Positions 11,404 to 47,428 of a stretch of 64,000 bases of DNA are shown here, in pieces (position 1 is the stretch's first letter; each line of letters starts with the position of its first letter). A program made the translations under genes and the position numbers. The notes beneath the pieces were generated by a model. It had not been told where the DNA came from. It was given only the letters and a program-made list of their open reading frames with translations, and did no database searches. Source of the stretch: Bacillota bacterium (GTDB lineage: Bacteria > Bacillota > Sulfobacillia > JAJZYS01 > JAJYTV01); assembly GCA_021793315.1 (NCBI GenBank), contig JAJYSZ010000003.1, positions 11,032 through 75,031 of the forward strand, written 5' to 3'.

Positions 11404-12660
11404 TTACGAGTTGGCAGCGGTCTTGGGGTGCAGATCGCGGCGCACCGGGCGGGGCTTGGCGCCGATGTGCCAGATGCGCCCGCGCGTCGGAACGAAGCGG
11501 CCTTCGTGCGCCAGGATCTTGCGGCGGATGGCCGCCGTGTGCATGCCCATCAGCAGGGAGAGATCGGGCAGCGACAGCAGCGCCCCCTGTTCCCACGCCT
11601 CGTTCGCGTAGCGCTCGATGCGGCCGAACTTGAGTTCGAACACGCGCCGGCGCGAGACGCCGCGGTAGCCGGCGGCCGCATCCTGCTGCGTGAAGTAGCT
11701 TATGTGCACGGGCAGGACGCGTGCGGACTCCAGCCGGGCGCCGGCGCCCTGATCGGCCGCCAGCGCGAAGAAGACCATCTCGTCTTCCTGCAGGGTGCGC
11801 AGGCCGAGTTCTTCCACCGTCTCGCCGAGCCACTGCAGGTAGCGCTGGCCCTCGAAGGCTGTAAAGGCGCTCGTCTCCACAGGGCTCTTGCCGATCGGCT
11901 GCAGCCACTCGTCGATCAGCGTCGCCGCCTGATGGTGCAGGCGCGGGTGAAGCGCCGCCCAGCGCGCGACGGCCGCCAGGTGCTCGTGCTCGACATCCGA
12001 GTAGCCGGGGATGCGGCTCTGGCCGTCCGACATGAGCTGGCCCAGCCTGCGCATCATGCGGCGGAACGAGCCTTCGCTGATACCGAGCACGCTGCGCTCA
12101 AGCGATACGTCGCCGAACTCCAGGTACCGGCGGACGAGCCAGGCGTCCAGAGCCTGGCGCTGTTCGCCGGGCTTCGGGCCGCCGACGTGCGGCAGCCAGA
12201 TGCCGAGCTCGCGGACGGGCTCGAGGCGGTGCTCCAGGGCGGTCGGGGTGAGGTTGGCCCAGGCGGCGAGCTCTGTCAGGGATGCGTAGCCGCCCTGGCG
12301 GTAAATTTCGTAGATCCAGCGGATCAGGCGTCGGCGCTGCAGCACCGCAAGTCCGTACACTTGCCAGATTTCCGCGTCCTCGTCGACATCCACCGCCGTG
12401 ATGGTGGCGGTGCGGCGGCGCGTTGGGGCATAGCGGCGGGATGCCGTTTCAGGCACCGAGAGGCGCACCGATCCCGGCAGGGTGAGCCCCTGCACCTGGC
12501 TCATCCAGGCGAGACTCTCGTCGGCGATCTCCTCCGCCGCGAAAGCACTCTGGTCAAACTCTTTGCGCAGCGTCCGCACGAGCAGGGCCCTGGCACTCTT
12601 CGGCCGGACCCACGACGTCGTGTGCTGCAACGAATTCTGGTACCTGACGAGCTCCCCCAC
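11404..12660 (-). CDS. DUF1670-like protein with two HTH-containing repeats
   Basis: RIERYANEAWEQGALLSLPDLSLLMG...VPTRGRIWHIG, plus an upstream degenerate copy RLIRWIYEIYRQGGYASLTELA...LPHVG. GGAGG precedes GTG at 12660 (ORF track start 12675). Confidence 0.7.
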   Translation of the reverse strand: MGELVRYQNSLQHTTSWVRPKSARALLVRTLRKEFDQSAFAAEEIADESLAWMSQVQGLTLPGSVRLSVPETASRRYAPTRRRTATITAVDVDEDAEIWQVYGLAVLQRRRLIRWIYEIYRQGGYASLTELAAWANLTPTALEHRLEPVRELGIWLPHVGGPKPGEQRQALDAWLVRRYLEFGDVSLERSVLGISEGSFRRMMRRLGQLMSDGQSRIPGYSDVEHEHLAAVARWAALHPRLHHQAATLIDEWLQPIGKSPVETSAFTAFEGQRYLQWLGETVEELGLRTLQEDEMVFFALAADQGAGARLESARVLPVHISYFTQQDAAAGYRGVSRRRVFELKFGRIERYANEAWEQGALLSLPDLSLLMGMHTAAIRRKILAHEGRFVPTRGRIWHIGAKPRPVRRDLHPKTAANS

Positions 12661-12724
12661 TGTGGCCACCTCCATGGATTTCGGGACAGTGTGGAGGGGG
12701 CGGCTCGGCCGCCCCCTCTCGTTA

Positions 12725-14110
12725 CTAGTGCGAGTGCTGCACCCTGGCCGTGCTGGCGGCCTGAGTCTGTCCGCGGCCCACCACCGACCAGATGGCGAGC
12801 AGGGCGCCGATCACGACGACCACGAAGCCGATCGTGGTGATGACGAACGAGACGCCATGACTGGCCTGGGAGACGAAGATGTAGAGCATGCCGCCTATGA
12901 AAGAGACGAACGCTCCGGCGAGCAGCGTCCAGGTGGCACTGCGCTTGAGGCCCTCGTCGATGGCGAGCCACTTGAGGGCCAGCAGTACGGTGAGGATCGC
13001 TGGCAGCAGGAAGAAGGCGAAGTCCTGGTGGAACCAGGTGAATACGGAGTCGGCGGCCGAGCCGGGCGCACCCGTGGCACCGGCGCCAAAGATGTTCTCG
13101 TGGAACTCGATGTAGTAGCCGAAGCCGACCACCGTGACGAAGAGGATGGCTGTGACGAGCGCCGCGCCCCAGCGGTGCAGGGCATTCGGCAGGGCTTCCG
13201 CACCGAGGCCGATCAGAGCGAGCAGGCCGCCGCCCATCACGAAGACGCCTGTCACGAGGTCGTCGCCCGCGAGTCCGTTGACACCTCCTGGGCCGCTTGC
13301 GAAGAGCATGGGCGGCTGGGCGACCGAGAAGCCGCCTACGACGTAGACGAGCGTCATGACGATCGTGCCGATGGAGACGAGCCAGAGTCCGACCTTCATC
13401 AGCTTGCTGCCTACGCGGTCAACGCCGTAGGCAGCGCAGGTCGTGGCGATCGCCAGTGCGATGACCGCGGTCACCATCTCGTGCGAGTGCGATCCGATCA
13501 GGTTGGCCATCCAGTCCTGCCACTTCATGCCCGCAAGCGTGGCGTAGCCGCCGATGATGCCCTTCGGCCAGTCGCCGAACTCGAGCATCCAGCCTGCGAT
13601 GTGTCCCATGATCGCCGCCAGAAGTGCGCTTATTGCGGCAAAGGCGGCCGTCCAGGCCCAGACGCGACGGGTGTCGGCGGCCCGGAAGAACAGCGCGATG
13701 CTCAGGGAAACGAGGATCTCGTCCAGGAAGAAGAAGGAGACGATCTGGATCCAGAGCGGGAACGTGTCGGTGACCGCGTGGTCGAAGATGCCGCCGATGC
13801 CGCTGAGCAATGTAGCGCCCAGCGTACCCCAGAGAATGAGATTGTGCAGGGTCTTGTTCTTGTGGGATGCGCCGAAGACGTCCATCGCGACCAGGGAAAG
13901 GAAGCCCACCATGCCGATCAGTAGGCCGTGCAGGTACATGACGTGCGCGTAGTCGATGTTCGCGCCGGCTGACGGTTCCGACTGGAATGGGGTGTTGACG
14001 AAAGCGCTGCCCAGCGCCAAGAGAAGAAGCCAGACCAGCATGCCGACGACGACACGCTTTTCCGGCGACCAGAGCATATCGCCCAGGTTACTCTTGTCGT
14101 CCTTGGACAT
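12725..14110 (-). CDS. Multi-His ~12-TM integral membrane protein, putative heme/metal-binding (copy 1)
   Basis: About 12 hydrophobic segments; motifs MYLHGLLIG, FFFLDEIL, MGHIAGW, HSHEMV, FHE, WFHQDFA. Alignable over its full length with 25892..27268. Confidence 0.85.
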   Translation of the reverse strand: MSKDDKSNLGDMLWSPEKRVVVGMLVWLLLLALGSAFVNTPFQSEPSAGANIDYAHVMYLHGLLIGMVGFLSLVAMDVFGASHKNKTLHNLILWGTLGATLLSGIGGIFDHAVTDTFPLWIQIVSFFFLDEILVSLSIALFFRAADTRRVWAWTAAFAAISALLAAIMGHIAGWMLEFGDWPKGIIGGYATLAGMKWQDWMANLIGSHSHEMVTAVIALAIATTCAAYGVDRVGSKLMKVGLWLVSIGTIVMTLVYVVGGFSVAQPPMLFASGPGGVNGLAGDDLVTGVFVMGGGLLALIGLGAEALPNALHRWGAALVTAILFVTVVGFGYYIEFHENIFGAGATGAPGSAADSVFTWFHQDFAFFLLPAILTVLLALKWLAIDEGLKRSATWTLLAGAFVSFIGGMLYIFVSQASHGVSFVITTIGFVVVVIGALLAIWSVVGRGQTQAASTARVQHSH

Positions 14111-16730: not shown

Positions 16731-17363
16731 TCAGGCGCCGACGACAGCCTGGATCGCCTTCACGAGGTGATCCTCGGGCACCGCGCCCTCCAGGTAGTGC
16801 CGTCCCTCGTTGATCACGGTCTTGGGGACCCCGCGCACGTTGTGCTTGCGGGTCAGGTCCCAGAATTCGTTGGCGTCGACCATCTCGGCCACGACATGCG
16901 GCGAGTACATTGCCATCTGGTGTGCCAGGCGTACAGCCCGGGGGCAGTATGGTCAGGTGGGGGTGGTGAACACCTGCAGGTGGACATCCTCGGTCAGCGA
17001 CTCGAGGTATCTCTTGGTCGCGTCGGAGAGTTCGATCTGGCCCTGCGACAGATCGATGATGTCCTGAATCAGTACACCGAACTCGTGTCCCGCCGGGGCG
17101 CCGGTGAAGCGCGCGCGGGAGAGGCCCTCCGGTCCTTCGAGCAGGATCGACGGCAGCGACTCCTCCTCTAGACCGTACCGGCCGGCGTCAGCGACTTCAG
17201 CGCGCTGGTAGCTGAGCTTGGGGCTCAAGCCATCGAGTTCCGAGAGCAGCTGGTCGAGTTCCGACTTGCCTCCCTCGTCCACCAAGATCATCTTGATGGG
17301 GTCGCCGATCTGGGAGAACATCTCCTCGACCTGCTGCTTGACGTTTGCTGGCAGGATGGCCAA
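16731..17363 (-). CDS. Thioredoxin-fold protein disulfide oxidoreductase (AhpF N-terminal/PDO-like), selenocysteine at TGA 16953-16955
   Basis: ORFs 16953..17402 and 16731..16916 are in one frame: GAPAGHEF...LQVFTTPT-TGA-PYCPRAV...VRGVPKTVIN, giving a UxxC motif. Hairpin just downstream of the TGA; TTG start at 17363. Confidence 0.88.
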
Positions 17364-17454
17364 TGGCTGCACCTTCCTTTCGCTGCGGCCATGGCGTGAC
17401 ATGCTCCGCAGGGTTTCCGCAGGCCACGCCGCGTCCGGCGTTGGCGCTACACGT

Positions 17455-17534: not shown

Positions 17535-18479
17535 TCAGTCAGGCACCGGACGACCTGCGGCCGGCCCGCCTTTGACGCGCCAGAAGAGGAACGGCTTGGC
17601 CGCATCCGAGGTCCCAAGCTGCCCGTCTTCCGTCACCCAGAGGGCTGCCAGCTGCCCGCAGGCTTGCGCGATGCCCGTGGACCCGCGGAGGAAGAGCGTC
17701 TTGCTCCAGATTTCGGTCCAGGCAGGGTCGCGGCCGATGACCGTGACGGCGAGCAGCCCCTGCCCACCCGGACGTCCGGTGCGCGGATCGATTAGGTGAT
17801 GGACGGTCTGGCCGTCGTGCTGCCAGCGGTGCCTCGCGATCGAGGAGGTACAGACTGCACCGCCCTCAGGCAGCTGCAGTGCCGCGATCAGGTCCTCCGG
17901 ATTGCGTGGATCCTCGATTCCGACCTGCCAGCCGCGGCCTTGCGGGCCGTCGCCCGAGGCCAGGAGGTCGCCGCCGGCGTTGAGCAGGAAGTTCCCTGTC
18001 ACATGTTGCGCAATGCGGGCTCCCCAGCGCACGCCGAGCCCTTTGCCGATGCCGCCGAGGTCGAGCGCAGCGAGTGTGCGCACCTCCAACTGCCGTGGCC
18101 GGCGAACGAGCCAGCCAGGGCTGGGATCCGACACAGGGGAACTGCCGCGCGGTGCCCCCACATAGCCGTACTCCTCAAGGCGATCCAGGATGCGCGGGTC
18201 GAAGAGACCGGCCGTGCGTCGGTAGGCGCGCAGGGAGGTCGCAAGGGCTGTGTAGAGCCTTGGTGACACCGTCGTCCACAGGCCGGCGCGCCCGTTCAGT
18301 CGCGCGAGTTCGGCCGTCGGGCGAAAACGCGACATCGCCTGTTCGCTGGTCTCGAAGTCCGCCGCAGCCGCCCTTGCGACGGCAAGAGCCATCGCTTCGC
18401 CCACCGCGGGCAGATGCAGGCTGACCGGCGAGTGCATGGCGTTCCACTGAAAGGAGCCGTCCGATCCTTTGGTGACCAA
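17535..18479 (-). CDS. apbE: FAD:protein FMN transferase
   Basis: MSRFRPTAELARLN, LDLGGIGKG, NAGGDL, GWQVGIEDP, VCTSS, HHLIDPRTG. No signal peptide or lipobox seen. Confidence 0.95.
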   Translation of the reverse strand: MVTKGSDGSFQWNAMHSPVSLHLPAVGEAMALAVARAAAADFETSEQAMSRFRPTAELARLNGRAGLWTTVSPRLYTALATSLRAYRRTAGLFDPRILDRLEEYGYVGAPRGSSPVSDPSPGWLVRRPRQLEVRTLAALDLGGIGKGLGVRWGARIAQHVTGNFLLNAGGDLLASGDGPQGRGWQVGIEDPRNPEDLIAALQLPEGGAVCTSSIARHRWQHDGQTVHHLIDPRTGRPGGQGLLAVTVIGRDPAWTEIWSKTLFLRGSTGIAQACGQLAALWVTEDGQLGTSDAAKPFLFWRVKGGPAAGRPVPD

Positions 18480-18711: not shown

Positions 18712-20151
18712 CTACTTCGTCACTCGGAGGACGATGTGGAAGGCTGGCAGCGTGTCGCCCGGGTGGTCCTGCGCGTAGGTGAGCTGGGGCATGCCATACC
18801 AGTTCGGCAGGATCGAGCTTCCTTGGTACGGCGACGGGTAGATGTCGATGAAGTGGTAGCCCGGGGTGCCGATGGCGGGGATGTGGATGTGGACGTCGCC
18901 GTGGCTGTTGAAGCCGCAGGCGTAGCCCATATAGGCGTTGTCGTAGTCGACGGCGTAGATGTTGTCGTACTGCGTCCAGCCGACGCCGGTCAGGTGGACG
19001 ATGACCATGCTGCCCACCTTGGCGGGGTTCGGCGAGACGTCGATGAGCTGCGGCATGATCCGGAAGTAGGCCGACCCCACCTTCTGGCTGCCCTGCATGA
19101 GGTCGATTTCGTGCGGCGGGCCGCCAAGGTCGTCCGGGACCGTGCCCTTCCAGGTGAAGCTGCCGCTGCCGTCCGTGGTGATGGTGGCCAGCTGGGTCTG
19201 CGCCGTCTGGTACATCGAATTTGTCACGCGATTGCCCGACATGGTGTTCCAGACCACGCGCAACTGGGTGTTGGCCGGGAGCCCCTGGCCCTGCAGGGTG
19301 AACGTGCTGCCCACCACGCCGGATGTCGGCGTCACCGTCAGGTTGGTGCCGGTGGGCACGTCGGTCGCCGGTTCAGGGTCGACGACGGTCGCAGGCGTTC
19401 CCTTGGTGACCTGCACGGTCCAGTAGTAGCGCGGCAGATAGGCGTAGGGGCCTTCCTGCTCGTTCAAGTACGGTCCTTCCACGGCGCCAGCGCGCAGGGA
19501 GATCTGGTGGGTCCCCACACCCTCCGCCCGGACCGAGAAGGTCGCCGTGCCTTCGGTGGTGACGCCGGAGATGAAGCCCATGTAGTGGTTGTCGTAGAGC
19601 ACGCCGTACTCGGCGCCTTCGGCTCCGTAGGCCAGCCCCTTGACGGTGACGTGGAAGAGATCGCCCTGCGGTACGGCGGTACTCGAGATGGTGGCGCCGA
19701 TCGACTCGATCACGGACCCGACCGCGACGGCCATTCCACCTGCATCGGTCAGCTCGAAGTTGTGCATACCTCCGAAGCCGTTCGGCACGGGGAACGAGCC
19801 TGAAGCGGTGCCGGTTGCCGACGTCTCCACCGTGCCGATCTGTTCGCTGCCGTAGGAGTACACGACCGGCTTCTCCGTGCTGGTCCCGAGGTCCGCGCCG
19901 TCGATGACCCAGTGGCCGGAGACGGTCTGCCAGTCGAGCTCGAGCGTCGTGCTGGCCGGCAGGCCGGTGGCGGTCCACTGAATCTGATCGCCGGGGTAGA
20001 CGTAGGGGGTGAGGACGGTCAGTTGGCCCTGCGGTACGGACGTGGCTGCGTCATCCGCGAACGCCGGCAGGCTGAATCCGGCAAGGGCGACCGCGCCAAG
20101 GAGCGTTGCTGCCAGAGCGGGGAGGAGGCTGCCGTGCAGTGTCCTGGACAT
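18712..20151 (-). CDS. Secreted beta-sandwich repeat protein with YACGFNS motif (copy A)
   Basis: Signal peptide ending PAFA; Thr/Gly-rich beta-strand pattern; internal A-B-A-B duplication; single Cys in YMGYACGFNSHGD; paralogue of 22316..23767. Confidence 0.88.
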   Translation of the reverse strand: MSRTLHGSLLPALAATLLGAVALAGFSLPAFADDAATSVPQGQLTVLTPYVYPGDQIQWTATGLPASTTLELDWQTVSGHWVIDGADLGTSTEKPVVYSYGSEQIGTVETSATGTASGSFPVPNGFGGMHNFELTDAGGMAVAVGSVIESIGATISSTAVPQGDLFHVTVKGLAYGAEGAEYGVLYDNHYMGFISGVTTEGTATFSVRAEGVGTHQISLRAGAVEGPYLNEQEGPYAYLPRYYWTVQVTKGTPATVVDPEPATDVPTGTNLTVTPTSGVVGSTFTLQGQGLPANTQLRVVWNTMSGNRVTNSMYQTAQTQLATITTDGSGSFTWKGTVPDDLGGPPHEIDLMQGSQKVGSAYFRIMPQLIDVSPNPAKVGSMVIVHLTGVGWTQYDNIYAVDYDNAYMGYACGFNSHGDVHIHIPAIGTPGYHFIDIYPSPYQGSSILPNWYGMPQLTYAQDHPGDTLPAFHIVLRVTK

Positions 20152-20154
20152 GGC

Positions 20155-20967
20155 TTACTGCAGTTGGAACGCGAGCGAGGTGCCGGTGCCGGTGTTCGGC
20201 GGCGCCACCTTGTCTTGGGCGTTGACCTGGACGACGTAGAGACCAGCCTTGAGCCCTGACATCGACACGTTGCCCAGCCAGGCCTTCTTGGCCGCGTTGT
20301 AGCGCAGCGGGACGCTCCGGGCGACGATCTGCTGGCCCTTGGCGTTGATGTTGCCCTCGAGGCCGATGTTAGCCGTGACCTTGCCGGCGGTCATCGGCGA
20401 CAGGGTGGTCTTGCCCTTCGCGACCAGGGCAAGGTTGACGCCCGCGGTGATCGGCAAGGACTTCACGGTCTTGCCGACGACGGTGGCGGACTTCGCGGCG
20501 TTGCCCACCTTGACGTTCACCGCGTAGCTGGCGGGGACGATCATCAGTTCGGACGGTGCGACCATGAACTGCGGCTGGAAGCCGCCGCTGAGGCTGCCGT
20601 CCGTCGCGGTGACCGACCACTGGATCGTGCCGGTCGGTGTGTTGAGACCCTCGTGCCAGGCCGCCGTGAAGAAGCCGTCGTCCGTGTTGTAGATGGCGGG
20701 GTACGTCTTGCCGCCCTTCACGTAGACGGTCACTTTGGCGCTCTTGTCCTGTTTCCCGTCCTTGAGCACGTTGATGCGCCAGACGACGACGTCGACCCCG
20801 CGGTGGAACACATTTGTCTGCAGGCAGCCGACGTTTGTGACGGTGTCGGCGTAGACCATGAGACCGTCATTGGTCGATGCGGCAAATGCGGGGGAAGCCG
20901 TCGCGGCCAGCATGGTCGCTGCACCAGCCAAGCCTACCAAAGCGGCAAGGTTCCTGCGAAGTGACAT
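20155..20967 (-). CDS. Secreted protein with GCxQTNVF motif (copy A)
   Basis: ATG at 20967; MSLRRNL...PAFA signal peptide; YADTV...GCLQTNVFHRG; 3-bp gap to the downstream gene; paralogue of 23769..24578. Confidence 0.88.
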   Translation of the reverse strand: MSLRRNLAALVGLAGAATMLAATASPAFAASTNDGLMVYADTVTNVGCLQTNVFHRGVDVVVWRINVLKDGKQDKSAKVTVYVKGGKTYPAIYNTDDGFFTAAWHEGLNTPTGTIQWSVTATDGSLSGGFQPQFMVAPSELMIVPASYAVNVKVGNAAKSATVVGKTVKSLPITAGVNLALVAKGKTTLSPMTAGKVTANIGLEGNINAKGQQIVARSVPLRYNAAKKAWLGNVSMSGLKAGLYVVQVNAQDKVAPPNTGTGTSLAFQLQ

Positions 20968-21544: not shown

Positions 21545-22210
21545 CTAGCCTGACGCACCGCTGCTGGCGTGCACGGCGGGCTTGACCGAACCGCGCACGA
21601 GCATGTAGCCGCGACGCAGGTGGAAGCCCTTCGGCAGGGCACAGATCTGGGCTGCGGTGTAGCCGGCATTGGCTGGCTCGACCCCGACCAGCTTGCACCC
21701 GTTGAGCCATGGGGCCTTCAGCTGTTCGCCAGCGACCTTGCCGCCGGCGGACAGTAGCCGCGTCTCCTTGACCTTGGCGGCGCCGACCACGCGGTATTTG
21801 CCCGCCGGCGCAATGGCGAAGGTCAAGGTGATGAGGATCTCGTCCAGGAAGAACAACGAGAGGATCCGCAGCCAGAGAAGGAACGTGTCGCCGATGCTGT
21901 GATCGAAGATGCCGCTGAAGAGCCCGGCACCCAGCGTGCCCCAGAGCACCAGGTTGTGAGCCGTGCGGCTCTTGTGGCCGGCCCCGAAGACGTCCATCGC
22001 AATAAGTCCCACCATACCGATCAGGAGACCGTGCAGGTACATCGCGTGGGCGTAATCGGGCGCCATGCCCTGGTGCTGGTCGAAGAACGGCGTCGCCACG
22101 AAGGCGCTGCCGAGCGCCAGCAGCGTCAGCCAGACGAGCATGGCCACGATGACGCGCTGTTCGGGCGATCAGAGCGTTTTTCCGGGACTCTTCTCGCCGT
22201 GATCCCACAT
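21545..22210 (-). pseudogene. Decayed fusion of the membrane protein N-terminus with the SGAS protein C-terminus
   Basis: ATG at 22210, then TGA at 22169-22171 where paralogues have Trp (LWSPEK). Short in-frame deletions (MVG/LIAMD, FSG/IFD). After EILITLT it switches to GCKLV...ALPKGFHLRRGYMLVRGSVKPAVHASSGASG. Confidence 0.8.
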
Positions 22211-22315: not shown

Positions 22316-23767
22316 CTACCTGACCACCTTGATGACGAGGTGGAACGCGGGCAGGGTGTCCCCAGGATGGTCCTTCGCGTACGTCAGCTGGGGCATGCCC
22401 CACCAGTTGGGAAACACGCTGGTGCCCATGTACGGCGAGGGATAGATGTCGATGAAGTGGTAGCCGGGAGCTCCCACGGCGGGAATCTGGATGTGGACGT
22501 CGCCATGGCTGTTGAAGCCGCATGCGTAGCCCATGAACGCGTTGTCGTAGTCCACGGCGTAGATGTTGTCGTAATCGGTCCAGCCGACGCCGGTCAGGTG
22601 TACGGTCATCAGGCTGCCCTGCCTGGCCGGGTTCGGCGATACGCTGAGGAACTGCGGCATGATGCGATACTGCGCCGACCCGAGGACGCTTTGGTTCTGG
22701 TCCACGAGGTCGATCTCATGCGGCGGGCCGCCGAGGTCATTCGGCACCGTGCCCTTCCAGGTGAAGGCGCCGCTCGCGTCGGTCGTGACGGTGGCGAGCG
22801 CGATCTGGGCCGACTGGTACATCGACGACGTGACGCGGTTGCCGGACTGGGTGTTCCACACGACCTGCAGGGTCTCGTCGGCCGGAAGACCGCGACCCTG
22901 CAGCGTGATCGCGCTGCCGACGACGCCGGATGTCGGCGTCACGGTCAGGTTTGTTCCTGCCGGCAGCGTGACCTTGGGCTCGGGGTCCACGATGGTCTTC
23001 GGCGTCGCGGCGGTCACGCGGACGTTCCAGTAGTAGCGCGGGTTGAGCGGGTATGGGCTCTCCTCCTGGTTGAGGTATGGCCCCCAGACGCCTGCGCCCC
23101 GCAGGGAGATCTGATGGTTGCCGACGCCCTCGGCGCGCACCTCGAAGTTCGCGGTGCCGTTGGTGCTCACCGCAGAAATGAACCCCATGTACTTGTCGTC
23201 GTAGAGGACGCCGTAGTCGGACGTGTAGGGGGTGTAGGCAAGCCCGAGCACCTGGATGTGGAAGAAGCCGCCCTGCGGCTCCGTTGTTTGGGCGATGGTA
23301 GCCGACGGCCACTCGGCGACGCTGCCGACCGCCTCTGCCGTTCCATCTGCGTCCGCCAGCTGGAAGTTGTGCGTACCGCCGAAACCGGCGGGCACCGGGA
23401 ACGATCCCGATGCCGTGCCGGCCGCGGACGTCTGCACGGTTTCGATCTGCGTGCTGCTGAAGGTGTAGCTCGCCGGCTTCTCGGTACTCGTACCGAGATT
23501 GTCGCCATCGACTACCCAGTGACCGCTGACGGACTGCCAGTCCAGGTCGAGCGTTGCGTTCGGGGTCAGGCCCGTCGCAGTCCACCTGATCGCGTCGCCG
23601 GGGTAGACGTTCGGCGTGAGCACGGTGATCTGTCCGTTGGCGGAAGGGGTGCTCGTGGCGGAGCCGCCGTCTGCGAGAGCGGGCGAGCTGAAGCCGGCTA
23701 CCGTAACGCCAGCGAGGGCGATGAGGGCCAGGGACCGCAGGCAAGTCCGAACAAACGCTCGTGACAT
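22316..23767 (-). CDS. Secreted beta-sandwich repeat protein with YACGFNS motif (copy B)
   Basis: Signal peptide ending PALA; near-collinear with 18712..20151, including GYACGFNSHGDVHI and PQLTYAxDHPG. Confidence 0.88.
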   Translation of the reverse strand: MSRAFVRTCLRSLALIALAGVTVAGFSSPALADGGSATSTPSANGQITVLTPNVYPGDAIRWTATGLTPNATLDLDWQSVSGHWVVDGDNLGTSTEKPASYTFSSTQIETVQTSAAGTASGSFPVPAGFGGTHNFQLADADGTAEAVGSVAEWPSATIAQTTEPQGGFFHIQVLGLAYTPYTSDYGVLYDDKYMGFISAVSTNGTANFEVRAEGVGNHQISLRGAGVWGPYLNQEESPYPLNPRYYWNVRVTAATPKTIVDPEPKVTLPAGTNLTVTPTSGVVGSAITLQGRGLPADETLQVVWNTQSGNRVTSSMYQSAQIALATVTTDASGAFTWKGTVPNDLGGPPHEIDLVDQNQSVLGSAQYRIMPQFLSVSPNPARQGSLMTVHLTGVGWTDYDNIYAVDYDNAFMGYACGFNSHGDVHIQIPAVGAPGYHFIDIYPSPYMGTSVFPNWWGMPQLTYAKDHPGDTLPAFHLVIKVVR

Positions 23768-23768
23768 G

Positions 23769-24578
23769 TTACTGTACCGTGAAGGCGAGCGACGTGCCGG
23801 TGCCGGTGTTGGCCGGCGCGACGTGGTCCGCTGCGTTGACGTCGACGATGTAGAGGCCGGCCTTGAGGCCAGCGGTCGGGATGCTGCCGACCCAGGTCTT
23901 GCTGGATGCGTTGTAGCGCAGGGCGACCGTCTTGTTCACGATCTGCTGGCCCTTGGCGTTCACGTTGCCTTCGAGGCCGATGGCGGCCTTGACGGTGCCG
24001 GAGGTCATCGGCTTGAGCGAGATCTTGCCTTGGGACGAGGTGACGAGGTCAACTCCGGCCGTCACCGGGATGGCCTTGACGGCCTTGCCGAAGAGCGTGA
24101 CCGGCTTGGCGCCGCTGCCGACCTTGGTGTTCACGGTGTAGGTGGCCGGGACGATCATGAGTTCGGACGGTGCGACCATGAACTGCGGCTGGTACGAGCC
24201 TGTCGCGGAGCCGTCCGTCGCGGTGACGGAGTACTGGATCGTACCGGGGGCCTGGTTGATGGGGACGGGCCAGAACGCGGTGTAGAAGCCGTCCTTGGAG
24301 TTGAAGGGCGCCTTGAAGGTCTGTCCGCCCTTGACCTGTACGGTTACGGTGGCCGTCTTGTCCTGCTGGCCGTTCTGGAGCACGTTGATGCGCCAGACGA
24401 TGCCGTCGATGCCGCGGTGGAACACGTTGGTCTGGACGCAGCCCTGGTCCGTGACGGTGTCGGCGTAGACGGTGAGTCCGCCCGTCGAGGCGGCGAAGGC
24501 CGGGGTGGCGGTGGCGCCGACCATGGTAACGGCGGCGGCGAGTCCGGCAATCACACCGAGGCTCCTGCGAAAGTGCAT
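23769..24578 (-). CDS. Secreted protein with GCxQTNVF motif (copy B)
   Basis: AAGGAGG RBS; MHFRRSL...PAFA signal peptide; GCVQTNVFHRG; PQFMVAPSELMIVPA shared with copy A. Confidence 0.88.
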   Translation of the reverse strand: MHFRRSLGVIAGLAAAVTMVGATATPAFAASTGGLTVYADTVTDQGCVQTNVFHRGIDGIVWRINVLQNGQQDKTATVTVQVKGGQTFKAPFNSKDGFYTAFWPVPINQAPGTIQYSVTATDGSATGSYQPQFMVAPSELMIVPATYTVNTKVGSGAKPVTLFGKAVKAIPVTAGVDLVTSSQGKISLKPMTSGTVKAAIGLEGNVNAKGQQIVNKTVALRYNASSKTWVGSIPTAGLKAGLYIVDVNAADHVAPANTGTGTSLAFTVQ

Positions 24579-24911
24579 CTCGTTTCCTCCTTGGTTCGAG
24601 CGAGCTTGGGTTGGGCCGGATGTACGTGGCTCTGCCTCACGATTGAGGTGGTCTGCGGCGATCCTTCAGGCTCTGATGCCGGATCGCAGGACCATCCGCA
24701 GAAGGCGTTTCACGCGGACCGATCCATCTAGGCTGCGGGCGCCCTGCGGCGAAACGGGGGAAGCGCATTGCGCCGCCTGACACGGGCCGCGAACCTTCAT
24801 CTCTCCCTCCCTCCTCCTTGCCAGGGAAGATGGTCCGGGTCGGCCTGGTGTGCGATATCAGATCGCCTCATGCCGAGGCATCCGTCCCACAACATCACAC
24901 GACACGGCACT

Positions 24912-24929
24912 ATGTGAAACAATGCACTT
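24912..24929. promoter_or_regulatory. Rex/Crp-Fnr-type operator
   Basis: ATGTGAA-ACAA-TGCACTT, overlapping a minus-strand CATAGT -10-like hexamer. Confidence 0.65.
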
Positions 24930-25329
24930 GTGGACCCTGCTTGTGATCACAGTCCTCTTTCTCGAATGGCCTAGCCCAAGAAGCCGATGGAAACGCGAGC
25001 CATACGCCGGTTGGATGGAGGACATGCATAGGGCCCTCTTGCGCGGCAGGCCTGCGGGTGCCCAGTTGAGCGGGCGGCCCTGACCCATCGGCAATGGCCT
25101 TGCCGCTTGGTCAGCCAATGTGCCTATCTGCGGGTAGCCACGGCGCGGGAAAGGCCTCGCGATGCGCCTTGGCACCTTCTTCCGCTGTGGTAGGAAGAAG
25201 GGGGCAGGTCCCAGGGCACTGCAGCTTGGGCTCCCTTTGCTCCCTGAAGCGCCATGGCTGATGCGTACGGCAGAAGCGGGAACGAGCCGGGGGCCCATTC
25301 GGTCCCAGGGGCCGCCGACGGCGGAAAGA

Positions 25330-25395: not shown

Positions 25396-25800
25396 TCAAC
25401 CCGACGCGCCGGAGGTGCTGTGCACCGTCGGCTTCACGGAACCGCGCACGAGCATGTAGCCGCGCCGGAGGTGGTAACCCTTGGGCAGGGCGCACATCTG
25501 CGCAGCCGTGTAGCCGGCGTTGGCCGGCCCGATCTCGACGAGCTTGCAGCCCTTCGGCAGCCAGCGGGCGGTGACCCGTGCCGCGGCTGCGCGCTTGGCG
25601 CCGGCGAAGAGGTGGGCCGTCGCGCGGCTCGAGGCAAGGCGATGGCGCGCGGGCGCGGCTTGCCGCATCGGGGTGCTGGCTGGTTGGACGCTGTGCACAG
25701 CTGGGGTGGAGGCCGCGGCAAGGCCTGGCGCCAGCGCGGCCAGCGGCAGTGAGGCGGTGGCCGACGCTGCGATGAGTGTTAGGGCACGCGAACGTTTCAT
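25396..25800 (-). CDS. Small secreted protein with C-terminal SGAS flavinylation motif (putative ApbE substrate)
   Basis: AAGGAGG precedes ATG at 25800; MKRSRALTL...LAAA signal peptide; two Cys (GCKLV, QMCALP); ends VHSTSGASG-stop. Confidence 0.8.
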   Translation of the reverse strand: MKRSRALTLIAASATASLPLAALAPGLAAASTPAVHSVQPASTPMRQAAPARHRLASSRATAHLFAGAKRAAAARVTARWLPKGCKLVEIGPANAGYTAAQMCALPKGYHLRRGYMLVRGSVKPTVHSTSGASG

Positions 25801-25891
25801 GGCCCGTTCCTCCTTGGTATGGCGAGTGCTCAGGGCGCCTCTGGCATGGCGATCTGTCTGACGGCCATCCGGGCGGTTGACGTGACTCTTG

Positions 25892-27268
25892 TCAGTCCGT
25901 CCCGGACAGCACGGCCTTGTCGGGCGTTTGGGCGCCGACGCCGGGGCGTATGATGGCGCGCAGGGCCAGTACGACGCCGAGGACGATGCCGGCCAAGCCG
26001 ATCGTCGTGATGACGAAGGAGACACCGTAGAGCGCAGGGGAGACGAACACGTAGAGCATTCCGCCGACGAAGCCGAGGCAGCTTCCGGCGAGCAGCGTAC
26101 CGACGGATGCGCGGCGCTGGCGGGCGTCATGCGTAAAGTGCATGACCGCCAGGATGAGCGTCATGATGGCTGGGATGAGGAAGAGGGCGAAGTCCTGGTG
26201 GAACCACCCGTACACCGCGTCGTTGACTCCGCGGGGCGCCGAGGCGAGACCGTGGTTGTAGAGCGTTTCGTGCATGTAGATGTAGTAGCCCGTTATCGGA
26301 ACCGTCACGAGCAGCAGGGTGCTAAGCAGCGCCGAACCCCAGCGCGTCACCGGGTCCGGCAGCCTTTCGACGCCAAGGCCGACGAGCGCGATCAGCCCGC
26401 CGAGCATGACGCCCAGGCCCGTGACGAAGTCGTCGCCGCCGATGCCGTTCAGGCCGTGGGCGAAGAGCACGGGCGGCTGGGCCCAGGAGAATCCCGCGAC
26501 GACATAGACGAGCGTCATGGCGATCGTGCCGATCGCCGCCCACCAGAGCCCGAACCGCATCAGCTTGTTGCCGCGGGTCTGCAGGCTGAAGTAGGCGCAG
26601 AACGTCGCGACGAGCAGGGCGATCACGGCCACGACCATCTCGTGGGCGTGTGCCGATATCAGGTGGGTGAGCAGGCTTTGCCACGACTCCGCGGCCAGCG
26701 ATGCGTATCCGCCGACGATGGCCTTCGGGTAGTCGCCGAACTCGAGGATCCAACCGGCGATATGCCCCATCACCGCGGAGATGAAGCCGCTGAACGCCGC
26801 CAGGGCTGCGAGCCACGTTGCGACGAAGCGCGTTTCCACGGCGCGGAAGAAGAGCGCCAGGGTCAGGCTGATGAGGATCTCATCCAGGAAGAAGAACGAG
26901 ATGATCTGCATCCAGAGAAAGAGCGTGTCCTCGATGTTGCGGTCGAAGATGCCTCCGACGCCACTGAAGAGCGCGGCGCCGAGTGTGCCCCAGAGCACGA
27001 GGTTGTGCATGGTGCGGTTCTTGTGGCCAGCACCGAAGATATCCATCGCAATCAGCGACAGCAGACCCACCATGCCGATCAGCAGTCCGTGCAGATACAT
27101 GGTGCGCGCGTAGTCGGGCGGTGCCCCCGCACGCTGGTCGACGAAGGGCGTGGAGACGAAGGCGCTGCCGAGCGCGAGCAGCGCCAGCCATATCAGCATG
27201 GCTACGACGACGCGCTTCTCGGGAGACCAGAGGGTCTCGGAAAGGCTTCGCTGGCTTCCGGTCGACAT
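25892..27268 (-). CDS. Multi-His ~12-TM integral membrane protein (copy 3, intact)
   Basis: GAGGAGGAG precedes ATG at 27268; MYLHGLLIG, MGHIAGW, HAHEMV, MHE, WFHQDFA. Confidence 0.87.
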   Translation of the reverse strand: MSTGSQRSLSETLWSPEKRVVVAMLIWLALLALGSAFVSTPFVDQRAGAPPDYARTMYLHGLLIGMVGLLSLIAMDIFGAGHKNRTMHNLVLWGTLGAALFSGVGGIFDRNIEDTLFLWMQIISFFFLDEILISLTLALFFRAVETRFVATWLAALAAFSGFISAVMGHIAGWILEFGDYPKAIVGGYASLAAESWQSLLTHLISAHAHEMVVAVIALLVATFCAYFSLQTRGNKLMRFGLWWAAIGTIAMTLVYVVAGFSWAQPPVLFAHGLNGIGGDDFVTGLGVMLGGLIALVGLGVERLPDPVTRWGSALLSTLLLVTVPITGYYIYMHETLYNHGLASAPRGVNDAVYGWFHQDFALFLIPAIMTLILAVMHFTHDARQRRASVGTLLAGSCLGFVGGMLYVFVSPALYGVSFVITTIGLAGIVLGVVLALRAIIRPGVGAQTPDKAVLSGTD

Positions 27269-28025: not shown

Positions 28026-28610
28026 CTAGCGGTTGCCGCCGTACTCCCCGACGACCTTGCCCTGGGCGAGCACGAAGTGGGCCACGCCCAGGTGTGCGGC
28101 GTTGGCCTGCGGCGGCAGCGTGACCACCGCGAGATCCTGATAGGACGAGCCGGGCAGCTTCAGGCCGAGCTTGCGCAGGCGAGACCCGGCAATGCGCCCG
28201 AGATGCGCTCCGACGACCTGCAGCTTGACGCGGCCAAGCGGACTTTTGCCAACGATCGCAAGGGCCGACGCCTGGACGTGCAACTGACTTGCGTGCGCCG
28301 CCGCAGCCGCCAGGTCGGGGTAGATCTGCAGCGTCTTGGCGCCACTCGGACCGCCGAGTACCCACACGGGCACCTTGGTGCCCGTGCGCTGGACGGTGAA
28401 GAGATAGGCAGGCGCACCGACGCTGCCCTCTTCGGGGAAGTCGGAAAGGACGCCGGCCGTGGAGATCGGATAGCTCAGTACTTTGGTGGCTCCCGGAATG
28501 GCGCTTAGGGCGCTGTTTTCGGCGGCGCTCGGCCCATTTGGGCTGCTGCCGCAGCCTGCGATGAGGAAGGCGGCGGCGAGGCCGAGGGCCAGCGTGCGGG
28601 ACTGACGCAA
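28026..28610 (-). CDS. Lipoprotein of unknown function
   Basis: AAGGAGG precedes TTG at 28610; MRQSRTLALGLAAAFLIAG-C lipobox. Confidence 0.75.
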   Translation of the reverse strand: MRQSRTLALGLAAAFLIAGCGSSPNGPSAAENSALSAIPGATKVLSYPISTAGVLSDFPEEGSVGAPAYLFTVQRTGTKVPVWVLGGPSGAKTLQIYPDLAAAAAHASQLHVQASALAIVGKSPLGRVKLQVVGAHLGRIAGSRLRKLGLKLPGSSYQDLAVVTLPPQANAAHLGVAHFVLAQGKVVGEYGGNR

Positions 28611-28701
28611 AGAGGGTCCTCCTTGTGCGGATGCTCGCCTTTCTCTTCGCGCTGGCCAGGGACGATCCCTCCGAGCGCGAGCCGCCAAAGGCTTCCTGCC
28701 G

Positions 28702-31545: not shown

Positions 31546-32400
31546 CTAGAAGCTCGGTCCCGCGAAGAGCTCTTCCACCAGCACGCCGCCCGTCACGGGC
31601 AGGACTGCGATGCCGGTCTGGGTGAAGGCCGAGTCGAGCAGGTTGGCCTTGTGGCCAGGATCGGACATCAGGTCGATCATGGCCCGCTGGATGGTCCCGG
31701 CTTCTGCGATGTTTTCCGCACCCATGGACTGGGCGCTGAAGCCGGCCGCGGTCTCCTGGTTGATCGGCCAGCCAAGGCGCGGCGAGTAGTGGGCCACGTA
31801 GCCGTAGGTGATCATGTCCTGTGCCTTGGCCAAGGCCAGCTGATCAAGGGTGGGGCTGTCGGCCAGCGCGCCGACTCCCGCCTGCTGGCGTGCCTGGTTG
31901 ACGAGCGACAGGAATTGCGCCGAGAGCGAGGCGCTGCTGTCGGGCGCGGTGCTGGGCGCACCCGCGTTGGACGAGGTTGCGCCGGTCGAGCCGGAGGCGC
32001 CCGATCCGGAGGTGGCCGCGCCGGATGCACCCGAGGAACCGGAGCTTGTCCCACCGGTCGACACGCCGCTCGGCGTCGGGGCCGGGGCCACCGGCTGGGA
32101 GACCCACTGGCCGAGCCCGGGCACGAAGTAGGACGTCGAGCCGACCGAGAAGGCGGAACCTGAAGCTGAGGTCGTCGCCGGCTGCGACGGGCTGGTGGAC
32201 GGCGTCGACGGCTGGGCCGGTGTCGTGCTCGGCTGCGGGAAGGTGAGCGACGTCGGTACGGTGACAAGCGGGCTGCCAAGAACCGCGCCGAAGTAGGTGG
32301 TGCTTCCCTGGCTCGTGTAGGTCGGGGCGGCAAAGGCGGGCACGGCCGGCAGGAGAAGCCCGGCGGCGGCGGCCAGCGGCAGGATGCGCAGCTTCTGCAA
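31546..32400 (-). CDS. Secreted CAP/SCP domain protein with Ser/Gly/Pro-rich linker
   Basis: Signal peptide ending PAFA; LVNQARQQAG, AKAQDM, HYSP, GAENIA, SDPGHKANLL. Confidence 0.88.
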   Translation of the reverse strand: MQKLRILPLAAAAGLLLPAVPAFAAPTYTSQGSTTYFGAVLGSPLVTVPTSLTFPQPSTTPAQPSTPSTSPSQPATTSASGSAFSVGSTSYFVPGLGQWVSQPVAPAPTPSGVSTGGTSSGSSGASGAATSGSGASGSTGATSSNAGAPSTAPDSSASLSAQFLSLVNQARQQAGVGALADSPTLDQLALAKAQDMITYGYVAHYSPRLGWPINQETAAGFSAQSMGAENIAEAGTIQRAMIDLMSDPGHKANLLDSAFTQTGIAVLPVTGGVLVEELFAGPSF

Positions 32401-47352: not shown

Positions 47353-47428
47353 GGCCCCATGGTCTAGAGGCCTAGGACACCACTCTTTCAAGGTGGGAAC
47401 ACGGGTTCGAATCCCGTTGGGGCCACCA
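47353..47428 (+). tRNA. tRNA-Glu(TTC)
   Basis: 76 nt; acceptor stem GGCCCCA/TGGGGCC plus ACCA; anticodon arm CCACT-CTTTCAA-GGTGG; T-loop GGTTCGAATCC; TATAAT just upstream. Confidence 0.97.

Follow-up and report, generated by a model that had tools for sequence, protein, structure and literature searches.

We analysed a 64,000-nucleotide (nt) stretch of contig JAJYSZ010000003.1 from a Bacillota bacterium, hereafter the window, in which a gene at 25396..25800 on the minus strand encodes a small protein of 134 amino acids (aa) whose C-terminus resembles the acceptor motif of ApbE, the FAD:protein FMN transferase (FAD, flavin adenine dinucleotide; FMN, flavin mononucleotide). The original prediction, which was made from the sequence alone, proposed that this protein carries FMN on a flexible tail and represents a new class of ApbE substrates. 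Comparison of the small protein with its relatives, its gene neighbourhood and the modelled structure of an adjacent membrane protein, termed TM12 here, led us to regard this proposal as plausible but only partly supported. The open reading frame (ORF) listing of the window gives only a longer frame, 25396..26130 (244 aa), which encloses the 134-aa gene. The gene and its elements are as follows.

25396..25800, minus: small-protein gene (134 aa plus stop), with signal peptide, basic linker, two-Cys mini-domain and the end ...VHSTSGASG
25809..25815, minus: ribosome-binding site AAGGAGG, 8 nt 5′ of the ATG at 25800
25708..25800, minus: putative Sec-type signal peptide, residues 1 to about 31 (MKRSR, hydrophobic run, Ala-rich end; read from sequence)
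25564..25707, minus: basic Ala/Arg/His linker, residues 32–79, missing from the short (88–104 aa) family members
25441..25563, minus: mini-domain, residues 80–120, with invariant L81, P82, G84, C85, C103, G108, G114 and Y115
25399..25440, minus: tail, residues 121–134, with H127 at position −6, S130-G131-A132-S133 as the ApbE-type motif and G134 as the last residue
25322..25363, minus: intrinsic-terminator-like hairpin of 11 + 3 base pairs followed by UUCUUUCC, about 33 nt past the small-gene stop

That a 134-aa gene with its own ribosome-binding site is hidden inside the longer ORF was borne out by its frame, this site, the codon-position composition and the starts of its homologues. The GC content at codon positions 1/2/3 is 0.69/0.66/0.84 in 25399..25800, with a third-position value (GC3) of 0.93 over the mini-domain and tail, and the same-frame extension 25801..26130 gives 0.56/0.78/0.68. 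The extension coincides with the 3′ end of the upstream gene, which is read in a different frame with a GC3 of 0.87. Because the codon-position GC is off in the small-gene frame there and fits the frame of the upstream gene, the N-terminal extension of the 244-aa ORF call is non-coding. The same Met-Lys start is found in 10 of 12 homologues, the two exceptions being a truncated call and a chimera described below.

The signal peptide, basic linker, two Cys and terminal STSGASG named in the original prediction could all be read in the translated protein. With its positive N-terminus, hydrophobic run and two invariant Cys, the small protein looks exported by the general secretory (Sec) pathway; a twin-arginine translocation (Tat) signal was considered and rejected, as adjacent Arg-Arg occurs in only 1 of 18 N-termini and the consensus in none of the 18. 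The linker comprises about 48 residues, rich in Arg, His and Ala and with zero acidic residues, and is followed by the segment from W80 to G120, which carries Cys85 and Cys103. The tail reads S-V-K-P-T-V-H-S-T-S-G-A-S-G, in which S133, the last-but-one residue, is the proposed FMN acceptor. The AlphaFold2 model of the small protein (12-sequence input) was weak, with a mean predicted local distance difference test score (pLDDT) of 57.8; residues 80–122 formed two strands with moderate confidence (pLDDT about 78), and pLDDT dropped from 54 to 38 along the tail.

A word-indexed search returned 12 small-family proteins, and a profile search of 1.84 billion representatives gave 19 matches at E<=0.001, of which 13 span the C-terminal domain. 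The other six are long proteins (P0113–P0118, 492–4331 aa) that match the Ala-rich linker only and were set aside as low-complexity; likewise, three loci (L015–L017) with 33–39% identity over the linker only (E 3e-4) held no match to any cluster protein and were dropped. The family includes short members of 88–104 aa that do without the basic linker. The alignment (A3) comprised 18 sequences, with the chimera and a 59-aa fragment, both of which end in GASG, left out. Apart from the eight mini-domain residues listed above, its invariant columns are the terminal G-A-S-G, which forms the sole run of four consecutive invariant columns. Conservation of the terminal motif in homologues, which the original prediction had named as a check on itself, was thereby confirmed: all 18 aligned members keep GASG, although identity falls to 37% and nearby positions vary, and it ends all 24 proteins seen (the 18 aligned ones, the chimera, the fragment and four further cluster members), with 0–2 residues after its final Gly across the family. 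Position −3 is Ser in 10, Thr in 7 and Ala in 1 of the 18, the close relatives of the lone Ala sequence having Thr, so that [ST]-G-A-[ST] is exact in 17 of 18 members; position −6 is His in 16 and Asn in 2. Among 11 DNA copies, the GASG codons show 3, 3, 3 and 4 synonymous forms, respectively, and zero replacements; because these codons vary synonymously only, the tail is, as judged from codon variation, under purifying selection.

The motif could also have arisen by chance, without any specific role, in a tail rich in Ser, Gly and Ala that is encoded by a high-GC genome. The genome (3.5 Mb, 90.24% complete) has 67% GC, [ST]GA[ST] occurs 334 times in the 1,308,348 residues of its 5,743 crude ORFs (2.6e-4 per position), and the extended motif is found at 36 ORF positions genome-wide; a terminal [ST]GA[ST] in one protein is thus an event of about 1e-3 by chance. 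What goes beyond chance, by these counts, is the conservation of the terminal GASG and not its single occurrence. Its invariance down to 37% identity while its neighbours vary, together with the purely synonymous turnover of its codons, speaks against a chance origin, which we consider very improbable.

No canonical FMN_bind domain underlies the tail, as the original prediction had stated. None of the 18 members matched any Pfam family even at E<=10, including FMN_bind, DUF2271, DUF3570, Flavodoxin_4 and FMN_red, and comparison of the family profile with 20 FMN_bind domains by hhalign gave a probability of 0.3% (E 0.21). NCBIfam models likewise gave no match over cut-off for the small protein or for the other proteins of the cluster.

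The gene at 17535..18479, already taken for an ApbE in the original prediction, matches PF02424 with an E-value of 2e-46 and 159 bits. Its product aligns with the solved enzymes of E. coli, Thermotoga, Vibrio, Listeria and Treponema and keeps the Ser and the His-x-I-D-P block. The conserved catalytic residues of ApbE are Ser, His and Asp (PMC12052999; here and below, statements on the literature refer to the parts of the papers that were available). By our reading of the alignment, Glu stands at the catalytic Asp position in the window enzyme, which overall looks intact. Two ApbE genes are present in this genome, the one in the window and another on contig C19. The known substrate classes are FMN_bind, NqrB/RnfD, DUF2271, DUF3570, Flavodoxin_4 and FMN_red (PMC8238504, PMC11334425). 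In the 90.24% complete genome, we found no FMN_bind, DUF3570, NqrB/RnfD or Flavodoxin_4 gene and no DUF2271 above cut-off, and neither of its two FMN_red genes carries the [ST]GA[ST] motif; FMN_bind is common elsewhere in the phylum sample, being present in 83 of 150 other genomes. Within the cluster, [ST]GA[ST] occurs in the small protein and the chimera only. Judged by its gene content, this genome holds no motif-bearing member of the known substrate classes, and its apbE is an orphan in this sense.

The second ApbE (in the region C19:25576..28011) has no signal peptide. Its gene is preceded by one for a small membrane protein with a single transmembrane pass and a tail rich in Ser and Gly, and followed by one for a membrane protein that reads as ferric-reductase/MsrQ-like; neither neighbour carries [ST]GA[ST]. 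A read-through fusion of the upstream ORF with this ApbE was rejected, as an ordinary TAG stands between them with an ATG 6 nt later.

The main genes around the small gene are listed here.

28026..28688, minus: lipoprotein gene, no family; also directly upstream of the cassette in the related loci L005, L006, L010 and L011
25892..27268, minus: TM12 gene, 458 aa, 12 helices; no Pfam or NCBIfam family, predicted fold of heme-copper oxidase (HCO) or nitric-oxide reductase (NOR) subunit I
23769..24578, minus: mid, secreted 269-aa protein of cassette 1, no family; paralogue mid2 at 20155..20967
22316..23767, minus: big, secreted 483-aa Ig-like protein of cassette 1; paralogue big2 at 18712..20151
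21545..22147, minus: in-frame chimera of the N-terminal 112 aa of a second TM12 and the C-terminal approximately 88 aa of a second small protein, ending ...VHASSGASG
17535..18479, minus: ApbE gene, FAD:protein FMN transferase family, no signal peptide in any frame
12725..14110, minus: third TM12 paralogue, 461 aa, five His kept

On the minus strand, the order is lipoprotein, TM12, small, mid, big, chimera, mid2, big2, ApbE, a thioredoxin-fold gene, a PF02133 permease and the third TM12. The lipoprotein may belong to the system. The window was compared with nine related loci. Of the 11 intact small genes, 10 directly follow a TM12 gene (the first copy in L010 does not), and apbE is found in the cluster in all four loci that reach far enough (window, L005, L010 and L012), five further loci ending short of its position. 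In L012, the order is TM12, small, ApbE and a second TM12, with a gap of 70 nt between small and apbE. Because L012 keeps TM12, small and ApbE without mid or big, these three form the conserved core as far as gene order tells.

The hairpin after the small gene, a strong one with a U-rich tail, was found by strand folding, and its 86-nt stretch had a z-score of only −1.66. Apart from L012 and L010b, the other loci have an equivalent hairpin at this place, built from different stem letters, so TM12 and small look like a separate, terminator-bounded unit. A second hairpin follows big2. A simple scan for promoters and terminators returned no promoter and skipped the small-gene hairpin because its stem has an internal mismatch; Rfam at gathering level over the whole window gave only a tRNA at 47353..47425 and no FMN riboswitch.

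The mid and big genes have a conserved upstream block of their own. This block of about 130 nt (window about 24860..24990, minus) lies in the gap of about 800 nt between small and mid and is near-invariant in four loci with diverged flanks. It includes the palindrome TGTGATCACA, is present as a single copy in the window, and is followed further downstream by a conserved AAGGAGGAGGGAGG...ATG, although the reading frame behind this ATG is not conserved. The block probably serves the mid-big unit as promoter, operator or leader. The big family, with internal Ig-like repeats and a conserved His-rich C-terminal part, gave 169 matches, all to unnamed proteins, and is far wider than the small and TM12 families, including Alicyclobacillus, Sulfobacillus, Paenibacillus and Deinococcales records. 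In the ESM Atlas, mid and big fell only into unannotated clusters, mostly of Actinomycetota.

These exported neighbours raise the possibility that the small protein is flavinylated without being a partner of TM12, acting more generally as a flavin carrier outside the cytoplasm, with the Ig-like mid and big proteins or others as acceptors. Such a role would fit the clustering of mid and big with the small gene in the window, L005, L006, L010 and L014, and the occurrence of a divergent small homologue and a big homologue on same-sized contigs (11027). It would sit poorly with L012, where the three core genes occur in the absence of mid and big, with the far greater breadth of the big family, and with the separate upstream block of mid and big. 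We consider this role improbable.

Two further observations were made on the surroundings of the cluster. A CAP-domain (PF00188) protein at 31546..32400 (minus) has three [ST]GA[ST] matches in a Ser/Gly/Ala low-complexity linker, and these matches are most likely compositional. The thioredoxin/PDO-like gene just after apbE (16731..17402, minus) contains a TGA in frame (16953..16955), exactly in the place of the first Cys of its redox motif; when read through, it gives T-P-T-U-P-Y-C, and the frame continues to a second TGA. A small hairpin begins 14 nt past the TGA at 16953..16955, a tRNA-SeC was detected in this genome by aragorn, and L005 shares the first part of the frame up to this TGA. This gene is a candidate selenoprotein gene.

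The original prediction had described 21545..22147 as a decayed paralogue of the small gene and taken its diverged linker together with its intact end as a sign of selection on the tail. The copy exists, keeps both Cys and ends in ASSGASG as stated; it is an open frame with a GC3 of 0.88. Its residues 1–112 are 72–76% identical to TM12 N-termini. A full second cassette (TM12′, small′, mid′ and big′) stands at the equivalent place in L006 and L010, and both TM12′ and small′ are lost in L005. Because L006 and L010 hold both genes intact there, sequence comparison identifies the window copy as an in-frame deletion chimera of TM12 and small and not as a simple decayed copy. Its linker is partly TM12 sequence and partly of the cassette-2 type, and in this detail the argument from the paralogue is wrong. 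The chimera also deviates at three near-invariant positions (P82 missing, E89 to G and G91 to E). It keeps TM1–TM4 according to the model, and its mini-domain would consequently end up in the cytoplasm; an arrangement with the mini-domain held outside the cell was dropped, as the AlphaFold2 helix boundaries leave TM1–TM4. We therefore treat the chimera as weak evidence for selection on the tail, the real evidence being the family-wide data.

The TM12 family has 90 members, all unnamed proteins, including those of an Alicyclobacillaceae isolate and an Actinobacteria metagenome-assembled genome. In 38 aligned sequences, H60, H169, H207, H209 and H357 are invariant, and D129, D279, D280, E334, D350, Q358 and D359 are also kept. 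The AlphaFold2 model of TM12 showed 12 long helices with a pLDDT of 83.8 and a predicted template modelling score (pTM) of 0.87. When this model was compared by VIA-align with 48,161 representative chains, all top 10 matches were HCO or NOR subunit I (Z 15.6–23.3, 372–405 aligned residues), led by NorB with Z 23.3 (383 residues, root-mean-square deviation 4.2) and CcoN with Z 22.8, and the next unrelated match had Z 10.6. In a Foldseek search of the PDB, the matches listed were likewise all subunit I of HCO or NO reductase, with template modelling (TM) scores of 0.33–0.57 and E-values from 1.8e-3. Hhalign in global mode against COX1, with poorly trimmed input, gave nothing significant, a local likeness between TM12 H-x-H-E and the H-x-H of HCO helix X was judged untrustworthy, and a PF00115 scan of the genome returned only two canonical COX1 genes, TM12 itself having no Pfam match.

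By the AlphaFold2 boundaries, H60 lies in helix II, H169 in helix V, H207 and H209 in helix VI and H357 in helix X, and all five would be in the outer third of the membrane. The six His of canonical HCOs lie in helices II, VI, VII (two) and X (two). The helix II and helix X His of TM12 presumably fit the location of the low-spin heme. Because the canonical six-His pattern appears incomplete by these boundaries, TM12 is called here, from its model, an oxidase-fold protein and not an oxidase. A complex prediction of TM12 with residues 74–134 of the small protein scored 0.00, which is evidence neither way.

Full-length TM12 genes number three in this genome, in addition to the chimera. One of the extra two, at 12725..14110, adjoins a gene for a DUF1670 protein (11404..12810), and the other, C103:1256..2650, lies on a contig of 4.2 kb without a small gene in the vicinity. 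The TM12 paralogue after apbE in L012 (L012:2064..3440) has lost all five His and may be a non-catalytic partner subunit.

Because of the tail motif, the synteny, the orphan ApbE and the TM12 fold, we lean slightly towards reading the small protein as a flavin-tagged redox carrier, which bears FMN on Ser133 and moves electrons between the adjacent TM12 and partners outside the cell. In such a system, ApbE would transfer FMN from FAD to Ser133, and the tail of about 14 residues would hang from a disulfide-bonded mini-domain outside the membrane. The exported mini-domain would sit at the outer face of TM12, where the tethered flavin could shuttle electrons between one or more outer-face cofactor sites of TM12 and the partners outside the cell. 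FMN attachment, export, the disulfide, the complex with TM12 and the direction and purpose of electron flow are all inferred from sequences and models. Because ApbE has no signal peptide, we infer that the tail would be flavinylated in the cytoplasm before or during Sec export, with the C-terminus leaving last. The Sec channel tolerates small adducts, and the extreme C-terminal, unstructured position of the tail would suit flavinylation before export. That the cluster represents a new branch of the oxidase fold, in which a mini-protein with a tail FMN replaces the CuA or cytochrome subunit as the part through which electrons enter or exit, and a signal-less cytoplasmic ApbE acts ahead of Sec threading, seems to us unlikely; it would amount to a natural flavin-tag and a new route to extracytoplasmic flavoproteins without exporting FAD.

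Several observations weigh against the carrier reading. The first is one of compartments: neither a signal peptide nor a lipobox could be read on ApbE in the window, L005, L010 or L012 (4/4), no hidden signal peptide was found upstream of apbE in other frames in these four loci, and this signal-less enzyme is set against a small protein with a Sec-type signal and two invariant Cys, both read from its sequence. In the available parts of PMC12052999, PMC9400968, PMC8238504 and PMC11334425, no case of cytoplasmic flavinylation of an exported protein is described. As for the motif, the Asp at position −6 of the flavinylation motif D-x-x-[ST]-G-A-[ST] (PMC12052999) is never found (0/18), and only one residue follows the acceptor Ser, compared with four in the C-terminal tag that was tested (PMC9400968). 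The mini-domain has no flavin-binding fold recognisable by Pfam or profile-profile comparison. The family is narrow, with 13 true matches in the 1.84 billion representatives, and among the 401 genomes of the phylum sample it is present in this genome only; the loci are close kin, their co-occurrence counts are not independent, and for two divergent small members co-location with TM12 is hinted at solely by same-sized contigs (7387 for P0119 and P0049, 6220 for P0111 and P0028). In most loci, apbE lies several transcription units from the small gene, a linkage by cluster and not by operon. Regarding TM12, its profile gave no match at E<=10 among the PDB sequences, hhalign against 17 COX1 sequences in local mode gave a probability of 1.3%, and by the modelled helix boundaries TM12 appears to lack the two His of helix VII and the second His of helix X. 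The missing Asp is softened because changing Asp to Ala has a minor effect and Ser is accepted as the acceptor (PMC12052999), and because Glu, Gln or Leu stands at this position in 11 of the 20 natural FMN_bind domains sampled from this phylum (D 9, E 5, Q 5, L 1).

Much of the same evidence bears on another explanation, in which the GASG-COOH tail has nothing to do with flavin and serves for docking or as a ligand, for instance as a C-terminal plug or a metal or cofactor ligand for TM12, or is the site of some other modification, and ApbE serves a different, unrecognised cytoplasmic target. The compartment mismatch in all four loci agrees with it; TM12 and small forming a terminator-bounded unit, the adjacency of small to TM12 (10 of 11 copies) being tighter than to apbE, and the His or Asn in place of Asp at −6 also agree with a docking tail. 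It would leave unexplained why [ST]-G-A-[ST] is exact in 17 of 18 members, why the motif occurs in no other cluster protein, why the genome has no known ApbE substrate, and why apbE directly follows the small gene in L012. We regard a docking tail as somewhat unlikely.

Flavinylation by ApbE is a major bacterial way of wiring redox chemistry outside the cytoplasm, and about 4% of genomes with apbE have no known substrate (PMC8238504). If the carrier reading holds, the small protein would be a new type of ApbE substrate, a bare terminal tail on a mini-domain without a flavin-binding fold. The finding would also tie flavinylation to a family with the oxidase subunit I fold that is invisible to sequence profiles, and TM12 bears on how far the HCO fold has diversified. 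The presence of a seemingly cytoplasmic ApbE with a putatively exported target makes the site of flavinylation directly testable. Our literature search returned no paper tying HCOs or oxidase subunit I to ApbE or flavinylation, and no further report of orphan substrates beyond PMC8238504.

Among the known systems, a flavinylated Ser on an unstructured C-terminal extension has already been described in FMN_red (Huang et al. 2024, PMC11334425). Given this precedent, the novelty lies not in where the acceptor site is but in the partner protein and in the lack of a flavin-binding fold beneath the site. FMN_red is also alike in the co-location of its gene with apbE and in its Firmicutes hosts. It differs in that its tail tethers FMN into the classical flavin site of the PF03358 fold, whereas the body of the small protein is an apparently exported two-Cys mini-domain of about 40 residues without a Pfam family.

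The FMN_bind proteins (NqrC, RnfG and PplA; PF04205) resemble the small protein as small extracytoplasmic carriers that partner a membrane redox complex, and their V-[DEQ]-x-x-[ST]-G-A-T aligns with its V-H-x-x-[ST]-G-A-S. In contrast, the two families have no hidden Markov model or profile relation, the small-protein acceptor is Ser and not Thr, and the small protein ends one residue past it, whereas FMN_bind continues into a helix.

The bare tail may also be compared with the synthetic Flavin-tag (Tong et al.; PMC9400968, PMC12052999), in which a short unstructured terminal peptide bearing the motif suffices for ApbE. Such tags of 7–12 residues work at N or C termini, and flavinylation takes place by ApbE expressed in the E. 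coli cytoplasm (PMC12052999, PMC9400968). The tag is engineered (GVDGLSGATLTS), with Asp at −6 and residues past the acceptor, whereas the small-protein tail is natural.

DUF2271 and DUF3570 are likewise substrates of orphan apbE genes that were found by conserved [ST]GA[ST] motifs together with gene clustering (Meheust et al. 2021, PMC8238504), a line of reasoning also followed in the present analysis, but they have other folds and internal motifs. As described in the available parts of PMC8238504, the survey retained a cluster only if an ApbE, FMN-binding, DUF3570 or DUF2271 protein in it carried a signal peptide or a lipidation site. With its signal-less ApbE and without any of the other screened gene types, a cluster of the window type would have dropped out; relatives may be present in the supplementary tables of the survey.

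On the membrane side, the comparison is with HCO/NOR subunit I (COX1, PF00115), whose 12-helix fold the TM12 model shares with Z up to 23.3 over 383 residues, and with which TM12 would have in common invariant His in helices II, VI and X near the outer face. It differs in having no sequence-profile match and five invariant His (helices II, V, VI twice and X) instead of six. Furthermore, no subunit II is encoded at TM12, and the small protein with its putative flavin tail is encoded in its place.

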